From Candidatus Rariloculaceae bacterium (GTDB lineage: Bacteria; Pseudomonadota; Gammaproteobacteria; Steroidobacterales; Rariloculaceae): 64,000 nucleotides of DNA. Position numbers and translations under genes: made by a program. The notes below the pieces were generated by a model. The model had not been told where the DNA came from, searched no databases, and was given only the letters and a program-made list of their open reading frames with translations. Numbering within the stretch: the stretch's first letter is position 1; each line of letters starts with the position of its first letter. This document shows positions 12,844-43,403 of this stretch, one piece after another. Location of the stretch: positions 2,560,100-2,624,099 of the forward strand of contig OZ241971.1 in the NCBI GenBank assembly GCA_965204155.1, in the 5' to 3' direction.

Positions 12844-13108
12844 GAGCGCGTCTCAGGCGGCGGAAATCGTACGTGGCGACCGCGCTCCGTCACGTACTTT
12901 TGAAGTTACGTCGGAAATCGTGCGCGAAATTCGGGAGAGCACTGGATTGTCCCAGGAGAAGTTTGCGGGACTCTTTCACATATCCGTTGGCACACTACGA
13001 AATTGGGAACAAGGGCGCCGTCGGCCCGATGGACCGGCAGCCGCCTTGTTGACCGCGATCAAGAATGACCCGGAGCATGTTGTAGCTGCTCTGAATTCGG
13101 TCGGGTAG
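12797..13108 (+). CDS. XRE-type HTH antitoxin (HigA/NadS-like), orphan
   Basis: HTH segment TGLSQEKFAGLFHISVGTLRNWEQGRRRP. The track uses a TTG start; ATG at 12803 or 12812 is more likely. Confidence 0.72.
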   Translation: MKMKTMDEKLFAKLIESASQAAEIVRGDRAPSRTFEVTSEIVREIRESTGLSQEKFAGLFHISVGTLRNWEQGRRRPDGPAAALLTAIKNDPEHVVAALNSVG

Positions 13109-13232
13109 TGCGCTGAATCGATTACCGGGCCTGGCTGCGTGCATTGCTCCTCTGTCGATCAAGTATTTTGGTGTCCCGCGCTTTCGGATATTTCATCGAG
13201 AGTGCGGTCCGCCCTCGCTGTCGCGCAAGGAA

Positions 13233-13508
13233 TTAACGGCGAATACCGCGCTCGGCCGCGAATTCGGTGGTGAATTCATGCAATTTTCGTCCCTCTTCCG
13301 AAAGTGCCTGCCTTGCGCTTTGCAGACTCTCGGCATATTGCGCGAGTTCCGCCATCTGCTCGTAGGTTTCGGCGTCCTGGACCACCACGGCGGCCTTGCC
13401 GTTGACCGTCAGGATCTCTGCACGCTTGTGTTCCATGAGCCGTTTGATGTGCTCCGCCGGCTTGCGGGTGAATTCAGTCACCGTATGGATCGATGAGTAT
13501 CGAAACAT
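13233..13508 (-). CDS. Phd/YefM-family antitoxin, orphan
   Basis: 91 aa; N-terminal pattern IHTVTEFTRKPAEHIKRLMEHKRAEILTVNGKAAVVVQD is typical of Phd/YefM. Confidence 0.78.
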   Translation of the reverse strand: MFRYSSIHTVTEFTRKPAEHIKRLMEHKRAEILTVNGKAAVVVQDAETYEQMAELAQYAESLQSARQALSEEGRKLHEFTTEFAAERGIRR

Positions 13509-13528
13509 TTTCGTATCCCTCGTGGTCG

Positions 13529-13552
13529 CAGAACAATGTGACTATTGTCTGT
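13529..13552. promoter_or_regulatory. Candidate antitoxin operator palindrome
   Basis: ACAAT-N6-ATTGT (13533..13548; imperfectly extended to CAGAACAAT/ATTGTCTG), 25-40 nt upstream of the Phd/YefM start. Confidence 0.35.
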
Positions 13553-13604
13553 TTTGACTTCCCGCGGAATCAATACTGGGAGCGACTGGCGGAGACGCCT
13601 CGCG

Positions 13605-14213
13605 TCATGTTTCCCGCAGCATCGAGAAGTGCACGCCATGGGGCCGCGCGGCATGGGCGAGCCAGCGGCACAGGTAGTCGGAAAAGCTTCTGCCGGCGAT
13701 GACGGTGTAGCTGGGCGCGTCGTCAGCAACGGCCAGCACCACTACTGCCTTCGCCAGGCCCGTGCGCGCGCATTGTCCGGGGCCGAATTCCCGGGGGTGC
13801 AGGTCCAGAGCGCAACCCTTGGCCAGCACCGTGCGCGCGTCGCTGCCGCTGACGCGTAGCGCCACGTGCCCGCCGCTGACGTCGTTGACCGCCGCGTGGT
13901 ACCCGGCGAGGGCGTCGGAGAGTTCGCTGGCAAGACCTGCGGCGCGGTCTGTGCCGGACTCGATCAGCCACTCGTCCGGGCCGAGCCAGTAGACGCGGTG
14001 GTCTCCGCCGGTGAATGTATTCCGAGTCAGCGGGATGGGCTGATCCAGTACCTGCGCAGCGGCATTGAAGGTTTCATCTCGACGCTTGTCGAGCCTTAGG
14101 TTGAAAAACCCGCGGCCGGACACCACGCGGACGTCGACGCGAGCCCGGGCTGCGGATTCCGCGGAGGCGAGAAAGGGTTCCAGGCCGTGGCGGCGTGCAG
14201 TCGAGTCAGACAT
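13605..14213 (-). CDS. soxG: Sarcosine oxidase gamma subunit
   Basis: 202 aa at the last position of the soxBDAG order. Sequence pattern is typical of SoxG (…RVYWLGPDEWL…). Confidence 0.85.
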   Translation of the reverse strand: MSDSTARRHGLEPFLASAESAARARVDVRVVSGRGFFNLRLDKRRDETFNAAAQVLDQPIPLTRNTFTGGDHRVYWLGPDEWLIESGTDRAAGLASELSDALAGYHAAVNDVSGGHVALRVSGSDARTVLAKGCALDLHPREFGPGQCARTGLAKAVVVLAVADDAPSYTVIAGRSFSDYLCRWLAHAARPHGVHFSMLRET

Positions 14214-14299
14214 TGTTGCGCCTTCCGCGGTTATTCATATCAGACATGTTGGCGCCACTTTCCGCGCTCGTTCGTTTCAGACATGTTGGCGCCGCCCCT
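14206..14299 (-). repeat. Triplicated soxA-stop/soxG-start junction forming two chained mini-ORFs
   Basis: TCAGACATGTTGGCGCC occurs exactly at 14240..14256 and 14277..14293, with a 3-mismatch copy at 14206..14222. Mini-ORFs are 14240..14284 (MSETNERGKWRQHV) and 14206..14247 (MSDMNNRGRRNNV). Each junction is an ATGTCTGA start/stop overlap. Confidence 0.85.
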
Positions 14300-17200
14300 T
14301 GGGATCGTAGAAGGTCGGCGCAACGATTTGCACCGGCAGCGACTCGCGCTCCGGCAGCGCCGCGTAGACGGTTTCGCCCTTGCGCTTCCGCCCGCCGGCG
14401 ACCAGGGCCAGGGCGATCGGGTGGCCGAGGCAAGCGCTGCGGTAGCTGGAGGTGACGTGACCGCACATGGGTACGGGCGCCGGCTTGCCCGTTTCCTCGA
14501 TGAGCTGGGTTCCCTCGGGTAGTACCGTCCGATCGTCGGAAGACAGGAGACCGACCAACTGTTTGCGGTCTTCCCGCAGGCAATCCGGGCGCCGCAGGGA
14601 ACGCTTGCCGAGAAAGTCCTTCTCCTTCGACAGCAGCCAGTTCATGCCCAGGTCCACGGGCGTGACGGATCCGTCGGTGTCCTGGCCGACGATGATGAAG
14701 CCCTTTTCGGCGCGCAGCACGTGCATGGTTTCGGTCCCGTAGGGCGCGATATCGAATGCCCGGCCGGCCTCGATGACCCGCTCCCACATGGCCAGCGCGC
14801 GGTTGCTGTCGATGTTGATCTCGAACGCCAGTTCACCGGAGAAGCTCACCCGGAACAGGGTGACGCGCATGCCCGCCAGGACGGCGGGCCTGACGGTCAT
14901 GAACGGGAAACTCTCCTTGTCCAGCGGAATGTCGCAGCCGAGCGTTTCCAGCAACCTGCGGCTGTTGGGCCCGACCACTGCGATGGTCGAATAGTGTTCA
15001 GTCAGCGATGTCAGGTAGACCTCCAGCTCCGGCCACTCGGTCTGCAGCCAGCATTCCATCCAGCTCAGCACGTTCGCCGCACCGCCGGTGGTGGTGGTCA
15101 GGTAGAAACGCTGCTCGCCCAGGCGCGCCATCACGCCGTCGTCCATGAGCATGCCGTCCTCGCCCAGCATGATTCCGTAGGCGCAGCGCCCGACCTTCAT
15201 CCGGCCGACGTTGTGGGTGTAGATGCGTTCCAGGAACTCGACGACGTCGGGCCCGCGGGCGTCGATCTTGCCCAGGGTGGAGGCGTCCATCACGCCGACG
15301 GAGTTGCGTACCGCCAGGCATTCCCGCGCCACTGCCCCGTGCAAGTCCTCGCCGTCCCGCGGGAAGTACCATGGCCGGTGCCACTGGCTCACCACTTCCA
15401 TGGGTGCGCCGGCGGCCTCGTGCCACTCGTGGATCGCGGTCTTGCGCACGGGATCGTAGAGTTCGCCGACGCTTTCGCCAGCGCCGACCCCGAAACTCAC
15501 CGGCGTATAGGCCGGGCGGAACGTCGTCGTGCCCACCTCGGGAATGGTCTTGCCGAGTATGTCGGCCAGCACGGCCATGCCATTGATGTTGGCGAGTTTG
15601 CCCTGGTCGGTGCCGAAGCCCAGCGCCGTGTAGCGCTTGACGTGCTCGACGTTGCGATAGCCTTCGCGCACGGCAAGGCGGACGTCGGCGACGCTGGTGT
15701 CGTTCTGGAAGTCGATGAATTGCTTCGGGCAGCGATCCGCGTCCTTCGCCGCCGGTACGCGCCAAAGGGCCTCGATCGGGTTCTCCGCGACGCCGGACGT
15801 GATTGGCGGTTCGATGGCCGGGGGTCTCAGCCCGAGTTTCGACACCGCTACCGTGCCGGCCCGCACGCCGTCGGCCAGACACTCGCCGAGGGACTGCCTG
15901 CCGTTGCCCGCGCCGGCCGAATCGTGGGCCTGGCGTGCTTGCGCGGGGACGAAGCCGAGCTGCGCATCGTCCCAGGCCAACCGCCCGCCCGCCTGGGAGT
16001 GCAGGTGAACGGCCGGGCTCCAGCCTCCGGACACGGCCACCAGATCGCAGTCGATGCGGATCGAAGGGGTCACGCTTGCCCAACTGTCGCCGCTCCACCT
16101 GGCGATGCTGGCGCCCCTGACACGACTCCGGCCTAGCACATCGGTTATCACGTGTCCTGCCAATACCGGAATCCCCAAGTCTCGCACCCGGCCGCCGAGA
16201 TCCCCACCGCCGCCGGGGCGGCTGTCGACGATGGCGGCCACCTCCGCGCCGGCATCGGCCAGGCTCATCGCTGTTCGATAGGCGGAGTCGTTGTTGGTAA
16301 AGACCACCGCACGGCGGCCCGGCAGGACGGCATACCGTTGGATATAGGCCGAGACGGCCGACGCCTGCATCACGCCGGGCCGGTCGTTGTTGCAGAACAC
16401 CAGCGGCCGCTCGAAGCTGCCCTGGGCCAGCACCACCTGCCTGGCCCGCACGCGCCAGAGCCGCCCTGCCACGGTTTCGCCGCTCCCGCGCCCTGCCGCG
16501 GCGTCGCCGCGATCCTGGTGCGAATCCTCGGCGCCGGCGTGCGCAATGCCCACGTGGCTGGAACAGCGCTCCGCAATCGTCAGGAAGTTGTGGTCGTGGT
16601 AGCCGAACACGGTGCTGCGGGGCAGCAGGATGCAATCCGCGTGGTCACCAAGTTCAGCCACTACTCCGGCGGCCCACTCCGCGCCTGGCTTGCCGTCGAT
16701 GCTGTCGGTGCAAGCCAGCAGGCTGCCGCCAAACTCGTTCTGTTCGTCGGCGAGAATCACGCGGGCGCCGGACCTCGCCGCCGCCAGCGCCGCCATCAGG
16801 CCGGCCGGTCCGCCCCCGGCCACCAGCACTTCGCAGTGCGCGTTCATGTGCTCGTAGGTGCCGGGATCGGGCTCCTCCGGCGCCCGGCCGAAGCCGGCCG
16901 ACGCGCGGATCAGGCGCTCGTAGAGCTTCCACAACGAGCGCGGGTACATGAACGTCTTGTAGTAGAAACCGGCGGCCAGCATTCGTCCAAAGACGTCATT
17001 CATTGCACCGATATCCAAGCGCACCGTGGGCCAGCCCTTCGTCGAGCGCGCCACCAGCCCGTCGTGGAGTTCCACCTGCGTCGCCAGGAGGTTCGGCTGC
17101 GCGGCGGCGCCTTCGCCCACCTGCATGATCGCGTTGGGTTCTTCCGCGCCGCTGCCGACGATCCCGCGCGGGCGGCGCAACTTGAAGCTGCGCCCCACCA

Positions 17201-17345
17201 GGGACACGCCGTTGGCGATCAGCGCAGAAGCCAGCGTGTCGCCTGCGAATCCCTCGCAAGTCTTGCCGTTGAAGGAGAAGGACAAGGGCTGCGCCCGGTC
17301 GATCCGCCCTCCCTGCTGCAAACGATTCGGCTGCGCGACCGCCAT
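14277..17345 (-). CDS. soxA: Sarcosine oxidase alpha subunit
   Basis: Conserved N-terminus MAVAQPNRLQQGGRIDR…FNGKTCEGFAGDTLASALIANGV begins at Met52 of track ORF 14277..17498. About 1022 aa with a GcvT-like C-terminal domain. Confidence 0.9.
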   Translation of the reverse strand: MAVAQPNRLQQGGRIDRAQPLSFSFNGKTCEGFAGDTLASALIANGVSLVGRSFKLRRPRGIVGSGAEEPNAIMQVGEGAAAQPNLLATQVELHDGLVARSTKGWPTVRLDIGAMNDVFGRMLAAGFYYKTFMYPRSLWKLYERLIRASAGFGRAPEEPDPGTYEHMNAHCEVLVAGGGPAGLMAALAAARSGARVILADEQNEFGGSLLACTDSIDGKPGAEWAAGVVAELGDHADCILLPRSTVFGYHDHNFLTIAERCSSHVGIAHAGAEDSHQDRGDAAAGRGSGETVAGRLWRVRARQVVLAQGSFERPLVFCNNDRPGVMQASAVSAYIQRYAVLPGRRAVVFTNNDSAYRTAMSLADAGAEVAAIVDSRPGGGGDLGGRVRDLGIPVLAGHVITDVLGRSRVRGASIARWSGDSWASVTPSIRIDCDLVAVSGGWSPAVHLHSQAGGRLAWDDAQLGFVPAQARQAHDSAGAGNGRQSLGECLADGVRAGTVAVSKLGLRPPAIEPPITSGVAENPIEALWRVPAAKDADRCPKQFIDFQNDTSVADVRLAVREGYRNVEHVKRYTALGFGTDQGKLANINGMAVLADILGKTIPEVGTTTFRPAYTPVSFGVGAGESVGELYDPVRKTAIHEWHEAAGAPMEVVSQWHRPWYFPRDGEDLHGAVARECLAVRNSVGVMDASTLGKIDARGPDVVEFLERIYTHNVGRMKVGRCAYGIMLGEDGMLMDDGVMARLGEQRFYLTTTTGGAANVLSWMECWLQTEWPELEVYLTSLTEHYSTIAVVGPNSRRLLETLGCDIPLDKESFPFMTVRPAVLAGMRVTLFRVSFSGELAFEINIDSNRALAMWERVIEAGRAFDIAPYGTETMHVLRAEKGFIIVGQDTDGSVTPVDLGMNWLLSKEKDFLGKRSLRRPDCLREDRKQLVGLLSSDDRTVLPEGTQLIEETGKPAPVPMCGHVTSSYRSACLGHPIALALVAGGRKRKGETVYAALPERESLPVQIVAPTFYDPKGRRQHV

Positions 17346-17347
17346 GG

Positions 17348-17611
17348 TCAGCCACCGTCCAGCGTGTAACTGCGCTCGATGCGGTAGGTGACCGTATCGC
17401 GCTCCACGCCGAACCATCGCCGGCAGCCGTGGGCGTGATTCCACAATTCCCGGTGGGCGCCGCGCGGGTTGGCGCGGTTGAACAGGTAGTCGGCCCATTC
17501 CGCGTCGCTCAGCGCGTCCGGGTCCGGCGGCCGCACGATGCCCGCCTCACCACCGTAGCTGAACTCGGTCTCGGCCCGGGACCCGCACCATGGGCATTCG
17601 ATCAAAAGCAT
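17348..17611 (-). CDS. soxD: Sarcosine oxidase delta subunit
   Basis: 87 aa with the MLLIECPWCG…HGC zinc-site pattern characteristic of SoxD. Confidence 0.9.
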   Translation of the reverse strand: MLLIECPWCGSRAETEFSYGGEAGIVRPPDPDALSDAEWADYLFNRANPRGAHRELWNHAHGCRRWFGVERDTVTYRIERSYTLDGG

Positions 17612-17630: not shown

Positions 17631-18881
17631 CTAGTGCGCCACCGCCGCGGCGCCGTGCTCGTCGATCAGCGCGCCTGTAGCAAACCGCTCCAGGCTGAAG
17701 GGCGCGTTGAGTTCGTGGGGTTCGTCGTGGGCCATGGTGTGCGCGAACACCCAGCCGGAGCCGGGTGTCGACTTGAAGCCGCCGGTGCCCCATCCGCAGT
17801 TGAAGTAAAGGCCCTGTACGGGCGTCTTCGAGACGATCGGACATGCATCCGGGCAGACATCGACGATGCCGCCCCAGAGCCTGAGCATGCGCACCCGGCT
17901 GAACACCGGGAACAGCTCGATGATCGCCTGCATCGTGTGTTCGATGATGTGGAAGCTGCCCCGCTGGCCGTAGCCGTTGTACGCGTCGATGCCGGCGCCG
18001 ATCACCAGTTCGCCCTTGTCGGACTGGCTGATGTAGCCGTGCACCGCCCCGGACATGACCACCGTGTCCAGCACCGGCTTGATGGGCTCGGAGACGAACG
18101 CCTGCAGCGGATGGCTCTCGATGGGCAGGCGCAGGTCCGCCATCCTGGCCAGCACGCTGGCGTGGCCGGCCACCACGACGCCGATGCGGTTCGAGGCGAT
18201 GGGGCCGCGCGTCGTCTGCACGCCCACGGCCCTGCCGCCCCGGACATCGATACCCGTGACCTCGCACTGTTCGATGATGTCGACGCCGAGCGCGTCGGCG
18301 GCCCGCGCGAAGCCCCAGGCGACGGCATCGTGACGCGCCACCCCCGCGCGGCGCTGCAGCGACGCGCCGAGGATCGGATAACGCGCATCCGGTGAAATAT
18401 TGAGGTGCGGAATCGCCTTGCCGAGTTCGGCCGCGCTGACGACCTCGGCGTCAATGCCGTTGAGCCGGTTGGCGTTGACGCGCCGCTCGATGTCCCGCAT
18501 GTCCTGCAGCGAGTGAGCCAGGTTGTAGACGCCGCGCTGGCTGAACATGACGTTGTAATTCAGATCCTGGCTCAGTCCCTCCCACAGCTTCATGGATTTC
18601 TCGTACAGCAGCGAGGATTCGGTCCACAGGTAGTTGGAGCGCACGATGGTGGTATTGCGCCCGGTGTTGCCCCCGCCGATCCAGCCCTTCTCCAGCACCG
18701 CGACGTTGCGGATGCCGTGATTCCTGGCCAGGTAGTAGGCGGTCGCAAGCCCGTGGCCGCCGCCGCCGACGATGATGGCGTCGTAGCTCTTCTCCGGTTC
18801 AGGACTGCGCCACGCCTCGCGCCAGTTCCTGTTGTAACTGAGCGCATTGCGCAGCAGCCCGAGCGCCGAGTATCGCTTCAT
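17631..18881 (-). CDS. soxB: Sarcosine oxidase beta subunit
   Basis: Starts at Met56 of the track ORF ([20 protein letters not shown]…[20 protein letters not shown]); 416 aa. Confidence 0.9.
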
Positions 18882-18930
18882 GATCTCATGCCCGGCCTGC
18901 TCCCGGCCTGCCGAAAACGCCAGGGGAGGC

Positions 18931-19024
18931 GCACTGCCGGTCGCTTGAGACCCTCGCCCGCAGGGATGCGGGCGCGGAGCGTACAGGGATGTATTCACAG
19001 CGTGTCTCAAGCGACCGGCAGTGC
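18931..19024. repeat. Perfect 21-bp inverted repeat with nested hairpin (intergenic, DMGDH1 / soxB)
   Basis: GCACTGCCGGTCGCTTGAGAC at 18931..18951 is the exact reverse complement of 19004..19024. Inner hairpin is CGCCCGCA-GGGA-TGCGGGCG (18955..18974). Confidence 0.9.
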
Positions 19025-19076
19025 GACTCCCCGACCCACCCACCACAGCAGCATAATCTTCGGTCAGACATGCGCC

Positions 19077-38157: not shown

Positions 38158-38448
38158 GGGCGCGCACGATCGGGGCACAAACGTTGGCCGGGTACCGCGA
38201 ATATCTCGCTGCAACTGTCGAATCGTTTTCGGGACAGCGCTCCGGTGACGGTGATCGACCGTTCCGGATGGCGGGATCCGCGATCGGTGGCGCATTCGGG
38301 AAGGCGGACGTCGCTCGCGTCGAGGGGTGAATATTGACGCTCGCGCGGGTCGGGCGCATAGTGACAGACGTGAATCGCGGTCTCCACGATCTGTGCCCAT
38401 TCCCTGTTCGCCGCCGCGCCGCTGGATAGCGGTACCCACTCGAAGGCG

Positions 38449-40863
38449 ATGGAAAACCAGGCCCGCATAGTCATCGTCGGCGGCGGCATCATGGGCGTCG
38501 GCCTGCTGTACCACCTGGCCGCGGAGGGGTGCAGCGATGTCCTGCTGATCGAGAAGGGCGAGCTGACGTCGGGCTCGACCTGGCATGCGGCCGGTCAGTG
38601 CCCCAACCTGGTCGGCAACTACAATCTCGCCAAGATCCACGAATACAGCATCGCCCTGTACGGGAAGCTGGAACAGCTCACCGGCCAGGCCGTCGGCTGG
38701 CACGGTTGCGGCAGCGTCCGCTTCGCCCTGAACGAGCGGGACCTTGACTGGTTCCGCTATCTGCGCGGGATCGCCACCGAAGTCGGTTATCACATGGAGA
38801 TCGTCGATGTGCCGCAGATCGCCAGGCTGAATCCCTTCGTCTCGACCGAAGGCGTGCTGGCCGGGGCCTGGACCCGCAATGACGGACATGCCGACCCCTT
38901 CGGGCTGACCCAGGCCATGGCCAGGGGCGCGCGCGAAATGGGCGCCAGAATCATGCGGCGCAACCGGGTGACCGGCATCAACGCCCGTCCGGGCGGGGAA
39001 TGGGAAGTGGTGACGGAACAGGGTACGGTCATCGCCGAAACGGTGGTCAACGCTGCCGGCTGCTTCGCCCGGCAGGTGGCGCAGATGGTGGGAGCGGACC
39101 TGCCCATCTTCAATGTCCAGCATCACTACCTGGTGTCCGGCCCGGTGCCGGAATTTGCAGAAAGAAGCGTCGAACTCCCCGTAACCCGCGACCCCTGGGC
39201 TTCCTCGTACCTTCGCCAAGAGCAGGAGTCCGGGCTGATCGGCATCTACGAGGGCGACGGCATCACCGAAGCCTGGCAACCGGGCGGACTGCCCCAGTGG
39301 GAATCCGACAGCGAACTGTTTACCGACGATCTGGAGCGCCTGATGCCCTGGCTGGGGCGAGCCATGGAGCGCATGCCGATCTTCGAGCCGGCGGGCATCA
39401 AGCGCATTGTCAACGGGGCCATCTCCCACAGCCCCGACGGGCTGCCGCTGCTCGGGCCGGTGGCGGGGTTGCGCAATTTCTGGCTCTGCTGCGGCACGTC
39501 TTTCGGCATTGCCCAGGGCGCCGGTTCCGGCAAGTACCTGGCCCAGTGGATCCTGCACGGCGACTCCGAAATCAACATGACCGGGTTCGATCCGCGGCGG
39601 TTCGGCGTATTTGCCGATGACGCCTTCATGCGGGCCAGGGGCCGCCAGGACTACGGCATGACCTACGCCACGGTGATGCCCGGAGAAGAACTGCCGGCCG
39701 GCCGCCAGTGCAGGACCAGCCCCCTGCACGACAAGCTCGGTGCGCAGGGCTGCGTATACACGGAAACCTTCGGCTGGGAGCGGCCCAAGTGGTTTTCGCC
39801 CGACGGCCGGGAGGAGCAGTACAGCTTCCGCCACAACAATGTTTTCGAAGTCGTGCGCGGAGAATGTCTGACGGTGCGCGAGCGTGTCGGTCTGCTGGAC
39901 CTTTCCGGGTTCGCGAAATACGACGTTACAGGTCCCGATGCGGAGACGATGCTGGATCGGCTGTGCGCCAATCGGTTGCCGAAACGTGGGCGGATCGCGC
40001 TCACGCATCTGCTGTCGGAGGGCGGGCGCATCGGCGCGGAAGCGACCGTCACGCGTCTCGGCGACGAAGCCTTTTACGTGCTTTCCGCCGCCGGCGCCGA
40101 ACTGCGCGATCTGGACCACCTGCGGCAAGGCCGTCTCCCGGAAGAGCAGGTCAGCATCGACAATGTCACGGACCGCCGCGGTGTGCTGGTGCTGGCGGGG
40201 CCGCACGCCCGGGCCGTGCTGGCACGGGTGACGGACACGTCCCTTGAGAGCAGCGACTTCCCCTGGCTCAGTGGCCGGGAAATCCATGTCGCCGGGATGC
40301 CGGTGCGGGCACTGCGGGTGAACTACGTGGGCGAACTGGGGTGGGAACTGCACCCGGCGATGGAGTACATGGAGCCGCTGTACGACGCGCTGATGGAGGC
40401 TGGCGCGGACTTCGGCATCGGTAATTTCGGCCTCTACGCGGTCAACAGCCTCAGGCTGGAAAAGGCCTACCGAAGCTGGGGAGCGGAGCTGACCAACGAA
40501 GTCACAATGATCGACGCCGCCATGGAGCGGTTCATCAGGTTCGACAAGGGCGACTTCATCGGCCGGGAAGCGACCCTGCGGCAGCGGGACCGCACCTTGC
40601 AACTGATCTACTTCAGCCTGGACGCCGGCGATGCGGACGTTCAGGGTGGCGAGCCCATCTTCGCCGGCGAGCGCTGCGTGGGCGTAACCACGACGGGCGG
40701 TTACGGACACTTCGTCCGCAAGAGCCTCGGCTTCGGCTATGTTCCGCCGCCGCTGGCCGTTCCGGGAACGGAGTTGACGGTCGACGTGCTCGGGCAACTG
40801 CGCAAGGTGACGCTGCGCACCGATCCGGTCTATGACCCGGCCAACTCCCGATTGCGCGTCTGA
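38449..40863 (+). CDS. Dimethylglycine/sarcosine dehydrogenase-family flavoprotein, paralogue 2
   Basis: 804 aa; IVIVGGGIMG; LTSGSTWHAAG; GcvT-like C-terminal domain. Confidence 0.85.
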   Translation: MENQARIVIVGGGIMGVGLLYHLAAEGCSDVLLIEKGELTSGSTWHAAGQCPNLVGNYNLAKIHEYSIALYGKLEQLTGQAVGWHGCGSVRFALNERDLDWFRYLRGIATEVGYHMEIVDVPQIARLNPFVSTEGVLAGAWTRNDGHADPFGLTQAMARGAREMGARIMRRNRVTGINARPGGEWEVVTEQGTVIAETVVNAAGCFARQVAQMVGADLPIFNVQHHYLVSGPVPEFAERSVELPVTRDPWASSYLRQEQESGLIGIYEGDGITEAWQPGGLPQWESDSELFTDDLERLMPWLGRAMERMPIFEPAGIKRIVNGAISHSPDGLPLLGPVAGLRNFWLCCGTSFGIAQGAGSGKYLAQWILHGDSEINMTGFDPRRFGVFADDAFMRARGRQDYGMTYATVMPGEELPAGRQCRTSPLHDKLGAQGCVYTETFGWERPKWFSPDGREEQYSFRHNNVFEVVRGECLTVRERVGLLDLSGFAKYDVTGPDAETMLDRLCANRLPKRGRIALTHLLSEGGRIGAEATVTRLGDEAFYVLSAAGAELRDLDHLRQGRLPEEQVSIDNVTDRRGVLVLAGPHARAVLARVTDTSLESSDFPWLSGREIHVAGMPVRALRVNYVGELGWELHPAMEYMEPLYDALMEAGADFGIGNFGLYAVNSLRLEKAYRSWGAELTNEVTMIDAAMERFIRFDKGDFIGREATLRQRDRTLQLIYFSLDAGDADVQGGEPIFAGERCVGVTTTGGYGHFVRKSLGFGYVPPPLAVPGTELTVDVLGQLRKVTLRTDPVYDPANSRLRV

Positions 40864-40958
40864 CCGCCGATGATGACATGGCCAACCACCGGTTGCGTGC
40901 CTGACTGCCGATGACGATACGGCCCGAGACTGCTGCCCAGCCCGAGACGGCGGCCCGG
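40861..40958 (+). repeat. Duplicated gene junction with relay mini-ORF, plus 18-bp tandem repeats
   Basis: TGACCGCCGATGATGACATGG (40861..40881) versus TGACTGCCGATGACGATACGG (40902..40922), 17/21 identical. Mini-ORF 40870..40914 (MMTWPTTGCVPDCR) ends in an ATGA overlap with the 40911 start. CCCGAGAC[TG]GC[TG]GCCC[AG]G tandem at 40923..40958. Confidence 0.75.
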
Positions 40959-43403
40959 CCCGAGCGCTCTGCCGACCTGCCGCGACGCGCCAGCGTGGTC
41001 GTGATCGGCGGCGGCGTGATCGGGTGCTCGGTCGCCTACCATCTGGCGAGAGCTGGCGTCCCGGACGTGGCGCTGCTGGAGCGCAGGCAGCTCACCTCGG
41101 GTACCACCTGGCACGCGGCGGGATTGGTGGGCCAGCTTCGCACGTCCATAAACATGACGGAACTGGCGCGCTACACCAGCGAACTCTACCTGCGCCTGGA
41201 GGCCGAAACCGGCCAGGCGACCGGCTACCGGCGCTGCGGTTCCTTCTCGCTGGCCACCAACGAAGAGCGGTTCGAGGAGTTGCGGCGCAGCGCCTCGATG
41301 GCGAAGGTCTTCGGGCTCGAAGTGGAGGTGGTCACGCCTGCGGCGATCAAGGCCCGGGTTCCGCTGCTGCATACCGGAGACGTGCTTGGGGGCATCCACA
41401 TTCCTTCCGACGGCTACGCCAACGCGGTGGACGTGACCAACGCGCTGGCGAAAGGCGCCACCGCCGCCGGTGCGCGCGTCTTTCAGAATACGCCGGTCAC
41501 ATCCATTCTCACCTCGGGCAGCAGCGTAACCGGCGTGGTCACCGATCAGGGCGAGATCCGTGCCGACTGCGTCGTGCTCTGCGCAGGCATGTGGACCCGG
41601 GAACTGGCCGCGACGGTGGGCATCAACGTGCCCCTGCACGCCTGCGAGCACTACTACGCCCTGTTCGCATCGGTGGAAGGGCTGGACGAGAACTTCCCGG
41701 TGGTGCGCGACTACGACGCCTGCGCCTACTACAAGTACGACGCGGGCAAGCTGCTGCTCGGTGCGTTCGAGCCCAATGCCCGCCCCTGGGCCACCGACGG
41801 CATCCCCGAGGATTTCTGTTTCGACGAGATCGACGGCAGCCTGGAGCACTTCGAACCAATCCTGGAACAGGCCCTGGCGCGCATGCCGGCGCTGGAATCC
41901 GCGGGGCTGGAGACGTTCTTCTGCGGCCCGGAGAGCTTTACGCCGGATGTCCGCTACCACATCGGCCAGGCGCCGGAGCTGGACAATTGTTTCGTGGCGG
42001 CGGGGCTGAATTCCATCGGCCTGCAATCCGCCGGCGGCATCGGCCGGGTCATCTCGGACTGGATCCGGCACGGGTATCCGCCGTCAGACCTCTGGGAGGT
42101 CGACGTGCGCCGCAATCAGCCCTTCCAGCGCAACCGGAAGTACCTGCGCGAGCGGGTTTCCGAGAGCCTCGGCCTGCTCTACGCCACCCATTACCCCTAT
42201 CGCCAGTACGACACCGCCCGGGGCGTTCGCAAGTCGCCGCTGCATGATCGGTTGAAGTCCGCCGGGGCCTGTCACGGCGAAGTGGCGGGTTGGGAACGGC
42301 CCAACTGGTATGCGCCGGAGCCGGGCCTGGCGCGCTACGAGTACAGTTATGGACGGCAGAACTGGTTCGAGTATTCCGCGGCGGAACACCGGGCGGTGCG
42401 CGAGCGGGCGGGGCTGTTCGACCTGTCTTCGTTCGCCAAGTTCAGGCTAGAGGGCCGTGACGCCGCCCGGGTGCTGAACACCATCTGCGCGAACGAAATT
42501 GATGTGCCTCCCGGCCGCATCGTCTATACCCAATGGCTGAACGGGAGGGGCGGCATCGAAGCGGATCTGACGGTGACCCGGCTCACCGAAGACTGCTACC
42601 TGGTTGTGACCGCCGCCGCCACCGAAGTCCGGGACTTCAACTGGCTGCAACGGCACATTCCGGCCGACGCCCGCTGCGTGCTGACCAATGTGACCTCGGC
42701 CATGGGCGTGATTTCCATCATGGGACCGAACGCACGGGCGCTGCTGCAATCGTTAAGCCCGAACGATGTCTCCAACGAGGCCTTTCCGTTCGCCCACAGC
42801 CGGGAAATCGAACTCGGCTACGCGCTGGTGCGCGCGGCCCGGATCACCTACGTAGGCGAACTCGGCTGGGAACTCTACATCCCCACCGAGTTCACGGCCG
42901 GCGTCTACGACACCCTCGTCCAGGCGGGCGCATCGTTCGGCCTGGCCCACGCCGGCTATCACGCGCTTGATTCGCTGCGCATCGAAAAGGCCTATCGGCA
43001 CTGGGGCCACGACATCACCGACGAGGACACGCCGCTGGAAGCGGGCCTGGGCTTCGCCGTGAAGTTCGACAAGCCGGGCGGGTTCATCGGCCGCGACGCA
43101 CTGTTGAAGGAAAAGCAGGCAGGGTCGGCAAAGCGCCTGTTGCAGTTCCGGCTGCTGGACCCGCAGCCGCTGATCTACCACAACGAACCCATCTGGCGCG
43201 ACGACATCCTGGTCGGACACATCACCTCAGGCGCCTACGGCCACACCCTCGGCGGCGCCATCGGGCTGGGCTACGTCGATACGGGCAAGGCGCCGGACCC
43301 GGCCGAGGGCGGATTCAGCATCGAAGTGGCCGGGGAGCGGGTGCCGGCGGAGGTATCGTCAAGGCCGATGTACGACCCGGCGAGCCAGCGCATCCGCTGC
43401 TGA
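40911..43403 (+). CDS. Dimethylglycine/sarcosine dehydrogenase-family flavoprotein, paralogue 3
   Basis: 830 aa; VVVIGGGVIG; LTSGTTWHAAG; GcvT-like C-terminal domain. Confidence 0.85.
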   Translation: MTIRPETAAQPETAARPERSADLPRRASVVVIGGGVIGCSVAYHLARAGVPDVALLERRQLTSGTTWHAAGLVGQLRTSINMTELARYTSELYLRLEAETGQATGYRRCGSFSLATNEERFEELRRSASMAKVFGLEVEVVTPAAIKARVPLLHTGDVLGGIHIPSDGYANAVDVTNALAKGATAAGARVFQNTPVTSILTSGSSVTGVVTDQGEIRADCVVLCAGMWTRELAATVGINVPLHACEHYYALFASVEGLDENFPVVRDYDACAYYKYDAGKLLLGAFEPNARPWATDGIPEDFCFDEIDGSLEHFEPILEQALARMPALESAGLETFFCGPESFTPDVRYHIGQAPELDNCFVAAGLNSIGLQSAGGIGRVISDWIRHGYPPSDLWEVDVRRNQPFQRNRKYLRERVSESLGLLYATHYPYRQYDTARGVRKSPLHDRLKSAGACHGEVAGWERPNWYAPEPGLARYEYSYGRQNWFEYSAAEHRAVRERAGLFDLSSFAKFRLEGRDAARVLNTICANEIDVPPGRIVYTQWLNGRGGIEADLTVTRLTEDCYLVVTAAATEVRDFNWLQRHIPADARCVLTNVTSAMGVISIMGPNARALLQSLSPNDVSNEAFPFAHSREIELGYALVRAARITYVGELGWELYIPTEFTAGVYDTLVQAGASFGLAHAGYHALDSLRIEKAYRHWGHDITDEDTPLEAGLGFAVKFDKPGGFIGRDALLKEKQAGSAKRLLQFRLLDPQPLIYHNEPIWRDDILVGHITSGAYGHTLGGAIGLGYVDTGKAPDPAEGGFSIEVAGERVPAEVSSRPMYDPASQRIRC

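Follow-up and report, generated by a model that had tools for sequence, protein, structure and literature searches.

Why should the boundary between two genes of one operon be present three times over? The question is raised by the soxA–soxG junction in a stretch of 64,000 nucleotides (nt) from a Candidatus Rariloculaceae bacterium, G000:C1:2560100-2624099, which we refer to as 'the window'. The source genome, G000, consists of one contig of 5.03 Mb with 63% GC. Many of its relatives seem, from the names of isolates and samples, to derive from sponge metagenomes, and we take the organism to be a gammaproteobacterium associated with sponges. soxA and soxG encode the alpha and gamma subunits of heterotetrameric sarcosine oxidase. 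Between them lie two very short open reading frames ('mini-ORFs'), chained in such a way that every stop codon overlaps the start codon that follows it. We suggest that this chain is probably a locally made junction minisatellite: a set of slippage duplications, filtered by selection so that the hand-over of ribosomes from one gene to the next, by termination and reinitiation, survives. It would represent a recurrent, frame-filtered type of mutation rather than a one-off device.

A repeated stop–start junction between soxA and soxG

The sox genes of the window occur on the minus strand in the order beta–delta–alpha–gamma, with all of the Pfam domains characteristic of the heterotetrameric enzyme (Table 1). 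Read from the sequence, soxA probably starts with the ATG at 17345, 2 nt past the soxD stop. Its 3′ end, on the minus strand, is TAC GAT CCC AAG GGG CGG CGC CAA CAT GTC TGA, the TGA occupying 14277-14279. From here the junction is repeated. Three 8-nt overlaps, ATGTCTGA, which can be read directly on the minus strand, link the soxA stop, the two mini-ORFs and the soxG start, and each stop of the chain sits within one of these overlaps. The three chained ATGs are spaced 37 and 34 nt apart, mini-ORF 2 bearing an in-frame deletion of 3 nt. Tandem Repeats Finder (TRF) reports a single array at 14206-14293, with a period of 37, 2.5 copies, 78% matches and a score of 100. The period is 1 mod 3, the rarer period class, and is combined here with an 8-nt overlap.

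An exact 17-mer, GGCGCCAACATGTCTGA, has two copies in the window, at 14240-14256 and at 14277-14293, where shuffles predict 0.01, and a third, diverged copy, GGCGCAACAATGTCTGA, is evident when the three junctions are aligned. With GGCGCCAACATGTCTGA... taken as the register, 7 of 37 positions distinguish the two G000 copies, and the copies of the array as a whole diverge from one another by 19-35%. The original prediction, made from the letters of the window, had described a junction motif occurring exactly twice, together with a diverged third copy, and mini-ORFs that begin like SoxG and end like SoxA. The 17-mer count and the alignment bear out the first description, the second is right as well, and the coordinates that it gave for the overlaps and the mini-ORFs are all correct to the base. 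A longer frame that also ends in the array, a 193-amino-acid (aa) ORF with a GTG start (14206-14787, minus strand), was rejected as an alternative-frame, high-GC artefact within soxA; its last 13 codons are those of mini-ORF 2.

What such a chain might accomplish can be pictured from its geometry. In the ancestral junction, ATGTCTGA contains both the soxA stop and the soxG start, and so a ribosome that ends soxA could reinitiate on soxG, a few bases back, which would couple the synthesis of two of the enzyme's subunits. A 37-nt piece, soxA tail plus soxG head, would later have been copied in tandem, whether by replication slippage or by unequal exchange: the first time in the ancestor of a small clade, the second in the G000 lineage. 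As the sum 37 + 5 is divisible by 3, the frame of the copied ATG ends on the TGA inside the next ATGTCTGA, and the path of a ribosome would become soxA, 14-codon ORF, 13-codon ORF, soxG. Since the frame closes on the next start, ribosomes would still be passed on and the duplication would be nearly neutral. The peptides themselves would be meaningless, and the handing-on of translation would be what counts. A duplication of some other length would cause the start frame to run into soxG, or would strand the ribosome, and would presumably be removed by selection. Thereafter, units could be gained and lost through recombination between the repeats, and arrays would expand and contract.

Table 1. 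Features of the sox operon and its array, and other junction arrays of the genome. Positions are those of the window unless marked 'genome'.
Feature	Position	Strand	Remarks
soxB (beta subunit)	17631..19046	minus	Pfam DAO; longest ORF, true start may be farther downstream
soxD (delta subunit)	17348..17611	minus	Pfam PF04267
soxA (sarcosine oxidase alpha subunit)	14277..17345	minus	Pfam Fer2_4, SO_alpha_A3, GCV_T, GCV_T_C
soxG (sarcosine oxidase gamma subunit)	13605..14213	minus	202 aa; Pfam PF04268, E = 3.8e-18; orthologues found
Tandem array, soxA tail + soxG head	14206..14293	minus	unit 37 nt (last copy 34 nt), 2.5 copies
Junction 1, ATGTCTGA	14277..14284	minus	soxA stop overlaps mini-ORF 1 start
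Mini-ORF 1 (unit A), MSETNERGKWRQHV, stop	14240..14284	minus	14 codons; ATG 14284-14282 within CAACATGTCTGA
Junction 2, ATGTCTGA	14240..14247	minus	mini-ORF 1 stop overlaps mini-ORF 2 start
Mini-ORF 2 (unit B), MSDMNNRGRRNNV, stop	14206..14247	minus	13 codons; ATG 14247-14245
Junction 3, ATGTCTGA	14206..14213	minus	mini-ORF 2 stop overlaps soxG ATG (14213-14211)
DMGDH-like pair (38446-40863, 40911-43403)	40832..40924	plus	41-nt unit; TRF, scan, Pfam
ruvC-ruvA	genome 4277410-4277525	plus	23-nt unit x5, each with GGGAGG; ORFs of 31 and 8 codons
ABC permease pair	genome 4466629-4466664	minus	35-nt unit, one extra in G000
nuoK-nuoL	genome ~4123720-4123790	plus	32-nt unit; stop, 2 nt, start repeated; state read in G000
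dctP-dctQM	genome ~3887030-3887190	minus	53-nt unit; variable copy number; first link CTG, doubtful

Ancestry and copy number of the sox array

The ancestral state of this junction is a single overlap of the soxA stop with the soxG start. We compared 154 soxA–soxG junctions of gamma- and betaproteobacterial relatives, drawn from collections of genomes and of metagenomes. Of these, 147 overlap directly by 8 nt (RTGNNTRR), 95 of them with exactly ATGTCTGA, figures that point to strong constraint on the ancestral overlap. Four of the seven exceptions are one-unit relatives belonging to the same genus as G000. The others are L061, described below; L078, in which the overlap is 11 nt; and L104, which has a direct start at stop-5, out of the frame of the SoxG match.

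Within the genus, the junction is single in G016, G010, G012 and G002. One 37-nt unit, with a 14-codon mini-ORF, is present in G014, G001, G013 and G006, and two units are present in G000. In a tree built from the SoxA C-terminus and SoxG, with the junction excluded, the five unit-bearing species representatives form one clade (support 97/96), the sister of which is G012; inside this clade, G000 groups as the sister of G014+G001. Unit B of G000 is orthologous to the lone unit of G001, G014 and the contig L253 (see below), and differs from that of G001 and G014 by 12-19%, near the 18% found at 4-fold degenerate sites. The original prediction was of an ancestral coupling site that underwent two tandem duplications and kept its frame logic. 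The single-junction genomes—the four just named and 140+ others—support this, as does the one-unit clade that encloses the two-unit G000, and alignment of the orthologous junctions recovers an ancestral single overlap and a nested gain of units.

A search with SoxG among metagenome contigs returned no close relative (best 72%), and yielded only extra examples of the single junction. As to the birth of the sox unit, the soxA tail and the soxG head each contain the motif ACGAYC, which was considered as a source of microhomology. We rejected it: its copies are 33 nt apart, against a unit of 37 nt, and an extra, later duplication of ACGA would be required.

Copy number proves to be labile. Extra sox junctions were taken from SoxG relatives in the ENA and Logan assemblies, and among them is L253, a contig of the same species with 97.5-98.6% nt identity to the window. 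It carries only unit B, with an identical peptide, and lacks unit A. L253 equals G000 minus 37 nt lying between the two exact 17-mers, and the copy number is therefore polymorphic within the species. The two-fold duplication stands, then, in a refined form: the number of units in the array varies, even within one species, and the phenomenon is not specific to sox. One intact unit is also present in L254, L255/L259 (which include a 34-nt form), L260/261, L262/263 and L264. By the ATGNNTGA route the chain is intact in G000, G014, G001, G013, G006, L253, L254, L255/L259, L260/261, L262/263, L264 and L267, the last of which has, besides the relay, a TGATG start in the soxG frame. The sole indel within intact sox relay units is an in-frame deletion of 3 nt.

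Other lineages have departed from this plan in instructive ways. L256-258, from three samples, contain two units, the middle TGA of which has become CGA; the first ORF is now 24 codons long and ends in TAATG on the soxG ATG, and the chain is still closed, though by a different overlap. The sole restructured chain is that of L266, in which a 5-nt deletion, at 480-530, follows the canonical soxG ATG and alters the reading frame, and SoxG begins at a unit-internal ATG (MERSEPCLNARRHGLE...). Provided that this long-read assembly is correct, relay DNA has here been turned into the coding N-terminus of SoxG. L061 (OX638323, 'uncultured Pseudohongiella sp.') is an independent case of decoupling, with gain of a Shine–Dalgarno (SD) sequence. 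At 1415-1520 an unrelated insertion of 81 nt lies between the old ATGTCTGA and soxG; from the old ATG, a remnant ORF of 22 codons runs to a stop 17 nt before the new soxG ATG, which is preceded by a strong GGAGGGAGAG (-9.8 kcal/mol). Separately, SoxG in L046 and L055 (~1420-1500) has a Pro/Gly-rich N-terminal extension of ~20 codons that begins at the conserved ATGTCTGA, and this may be the in-frame result of an insertion at the soxA–soxG junction.

The mini-peptides are not conserved, and change as fast as 4-fold sites or faster. The interiors of the units differ by 7-59%, compared with 11-34% at 4-fold sites, the largest difference, 59%, standing against 33% at 4-fold sites. One replacement respects the chain: the Ser to Ala change in G013 uses GCT, the only Ala codon that preserves the TGA. 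For G000, G001 and G012, the RNA of the junction folds no more stably than shuffles do (z = +0.4 to +1.2). The 3′ end of the 16S RNA is canonical (...CACCUCCUU). SD scores for soxG in G006 (-3.2 kcal/mol) and for mini-ORF 2 in G000 (-3.5 kcal/mol) are like those of random intragenic sites, the genome median being -4.5; GGAAGG, 7 nt before the soxG ATG in G000, has a moderate score of -5.7 kcal/mol.

Arrays at other gene junctions

Relay arrays elsewhere in G000 were found by crossing TRF arrays with start/stop overlaps and then with ORFs filtered by codon usage; the flanking genes were confirmed by Pfam. Five further locally derived, non-triplet arrays at other gene junctions (Table 1) follow the same frame rule as sox: in every relay array, adding the stop offset to the period gives a multiple of 3. 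All chains at these five junctions are intact, save the first dctP link, which has a CTG start. The units are unrelated to that of sox and are locus-specific, and the sox 17-mer is found nowhere else in the window. A permissive scan for chains of long ORF, mini-ORF and long ORF gave 351 hits on the plus strand alone; most lay in alternative frames, in a genome of 63% GC, and the scan, which has no use unless genes are called first, was discarded. TRF run on the 5.03 Mb of G000 lists 564 arrays at a score of at least 50 and 1449 at a score of at least 36, with periods that are mostly multiples of 3; judged on this genome alone, G000 looks rich in short tandem duplications.

The mini-ORF of the DMGDH array, MMTWPTTGCVPDCR (40870-40914, stop included), starts 6 nt past the upstream stop, and its end falls on the downstream gene's ATGA. 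G013 and G001 keep this array intact; G014, G016, G010 and G012 have a single junction. The N-terminus of the downstream DMGDH-like protein (40915-40990, plus strand; L211, L212) contains repeats of its own, in-frame and 18 nt in length, encoding PETAAQ or PETAAR; their copy number differs among G000, G013 and G001, and there are none in the single-junction genomes. Between ruvC and ruvA, G001 has four units, with one 31-codon ORF; G012 has an independent duplication of 74 nt (25 codons, GTGA); and eight other genomes of the genus have a plain ATGA overlap. The ABC permease pair has three extra units in G001, all of them ATGA relays, is single in G011, and has in-frame N-terminal extensions in G013 and G012. 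At nuoK–nuoL, copies of a 7-nt direct repeat, GTGGAAG, lie 32 nt apart, and a slippage origin fits this array for that reason.

How often would the frame rule be obeyed by chance? As a null, virtual non-triplet duplications of 20-60 nt were made in random phase at 1699 gene starts of G000. The stop of the resulting upstream ORF fell at most 5 nt from the true start in 23% at birth (5% for periods of 1 mod 3 and 40% for 2 mod 3). In the real genome, all six arrays with a period of at least 20 nt that copy an ATG or GTG start are relays, against ~23% expected, in a genome-wide sample that is small, with a period threshold that was set after the data had been seen and gene calls that are home-made. 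The arrays that are not relays are repeats of 10-17 nt; two of these are probably young, since their copies are perfect. The duplications observed at junctions that were already overlapped are either of the relay type (sox twice, ruv twice, and perm) or in-frame (perm in G013 and G012), and the third class has no members among them. Among ~25 units, in >12 sox lineages and at the DMGDH pair, ruvC–ruvA and the ABC permease pair, there is no frameshifting indel.

Explanations, implications and related systems

If hand-over is what selection preserves at these junctions, then ribosomes would pass through the mini-ORFs, soxG would depend on the relay, and the chain would be kept by selection rather than by inheritance of its state at birth. 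A rival account, raised as an alternative by the original prediction, is that the arrays are neutral slippage scars: their lengths happen to be relay-compatible, soxG uses its own ribosome-binding site, the mini-ORFs are irrelevant, and persistence reflects limited time together with coding constraints on the flanks. Several observations favour scars and weigh against selective filtering. In a neutral simulation limited to substitutions, 25-63% of lineages retain the chain, and over the five genomes 53% of 4-fold sites do not vary. Coding constraint leaves just two critical bases free; because most are constrained also by the C-terminus of SoxA (QHV and stop) or the N-terminus of SoxG (MSD/E), the case for ongoing selection is, for sox alone, weak. 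The frame relation is fixed at birth and, barring an indel, is merely inherited. In G000, soxG might initiate independently, since SD-like GGAAGG is optimally spaced before its ATG. The tight chain is not obligatory, as L266 tolerates a restructured junction with its soxG start moved into the unit. L253 has lost a unit without visible harm. The reservations attached above to the genome-wide count belong here too. What speaks against scars is the recurrence of the frame rule in six arrays out of six, and the persistence of intact chains, free of frameshifts, in the many sox lineages and at three other cross-species loci. Moreover, soxG of G006 starts without an SD, L061 gained a strong one when it was decoupled, and in L256 loss of the middle stop was accompanied by the new TAATG overlap. 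On this evidence we regard neutral scars as a possible but rather unlikely explanation.

Selection might act instead on the number of units. Were each reinitiation to pass on only a fraction of the ribosomes, copy number could be an adaptive dial, selected and reversible, that tunes the ratio of SoxG to SoxA and likewise that of the products at other junctions. Copy number does differ within one species (G000 versus L253) and among close species at several loci, and the genes that the arrays separate encode subunits of complexes (SoxA/G, NuoK/L, RuvC/A and permease pairs). Heterotetrameric sarcosine oxidase requires its subunits in equal amounts, however, and so lowering SoxG brings no obvious benefit; no correlation with habitat or phenotype is apparent, and neutral minisatellites change in copy number anyway. 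We think a dial improbable. Retention of ORF starts and stops across many lineages would be expected, too, of functional micropeptides, or of a structured RNA or protein-binding element. A functional micropeptide was rejected on substitution rates, the peptides diverging at or above the 4-fold rate (e.g. MSDTNDRGRRRNNV, MSDTDDHGGQQNHG and MCEENERTGQRRHV); folding energies that match those of shuffles speak against a structured RNA; and a unit that is dispensable within a species speaks against peptide and element alike, leaving this family of explanations very little room. Just as hard to credit is assembly stutter at the repeat. G000 is, to be sure, a metagenome-assembled genome, but one- and two-unit states recur in many independent assemblies, from short reads and from long, and the copies, differing as they do by 19-35%, are not an identical repeat that has been collapsed or expanded. 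Slippage duplication filtered for hand-over thus remains, in our judgement, the probable explanation.

Should the frame rule hold, coupling would be strong enough to filter which duplications a genome keeps, and arrays of this kind would provide a purely genomic read-out of the gene pairs that depend on it. They also show a route by which compact operons can gain spacers, small ORFs and new N-terminal sequence with expression retained. For annotation they are a warning: gene callers misplace starts at such junctions, SoxG being called as 205 and 212 aa in L266 and L267 for this reason, and they call spurious small or alternative-frame ORFs as well. Sarcosine oxidase itself is unaffected, and the genes for the enzyme are ordinary. 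More speculatively, junction minisatellites could be a general, undescribed class of bacterial variation: frequent in certain high-GC symbionts, surviving only in hand-over phase, and serving as reversible, heritable dials of subunit ratio and as raw material for N-termini. So broad a generalization is, for now, doubtful.

The closest known system is that of the mycobacterial MIRUs, repeats that insert at start codons and have an internal ORF coupled to the gene at -4 nt (Supply et al. 1997, as covered by the review PMC12548453). Like MIRUs, the sox array comprises short tandem units between genes of an operon, the stop of the unit ORF overlaps the downstream start, and coupling would survive. 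MIRU copy number varies among strains, and that of sox varies similarly, between two units in G000 and one in L253 of the same species, in the manner of a variable-number tandem repeat. MIRUs constitute one dispersed, apparently mobile family, whereas in the window the sox 17-mer occurs only at its locus. Each of our arrays derives from the sequences that flank it, with distinct units for sox, ruv, perm, nuo, DMGDH and TRAP, and so they lack the defining feature of MIRUs. The sox overlap, furthermore, is 8 nt rather than -4, and is found in a gammaproteobacterium rather than a mycobacterium.

Two other systems invite comparison. Termination–reinitiation coupling at overlapping or close stop and start codons is treated by Huber et al. 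2019 (PMC6728339) and in a 2023 paper (PMC10666635). The sox genes resemble such pairs in being co-directional, in encoding subunits of one complex, in the overlap of stop and start, and presumably in reinitiation at the nearby start. Classical coupling occurs at one junction, mostly ATGA or TGATG; the sox overlap, in contrast, is 8 nt, is present three times, with two throw-away ORFs between the copies. PMC12548453 deals both with short ORFs that 'deliver' ribosomes and with bicistronic design, and gives ref. 78 for bicistronic design and leader mini-cistron cassettes. In these, the SD of the following gene lies within a short leader ORF that ends on that gene's start, delivers ribosomes and unfolds the mRNA. 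Mini-ORF 2, with its GGAAGG, has a comparable geometry, its end lying on the next start; the SD is moderate for soxG of G000, and random-like for mini-ORF 2 and for soxG of G006. Bicistronic designs differ in being engineered and in lying at the 5′ end of the transcript, the sox relay being natural, operon-internal and made by duplication. A search of the literature found no paper on relays made by local duplication of a junction.

Finally, the surroundings of soxG have a feature of their own. Directly 3′ of soxG, in close relatives, is a gene for a PhdYeFM-type antitoxin, followed in several by a gene for a ParE-type toxin (window ~13100-13600; L253, L254 and L260-L263).

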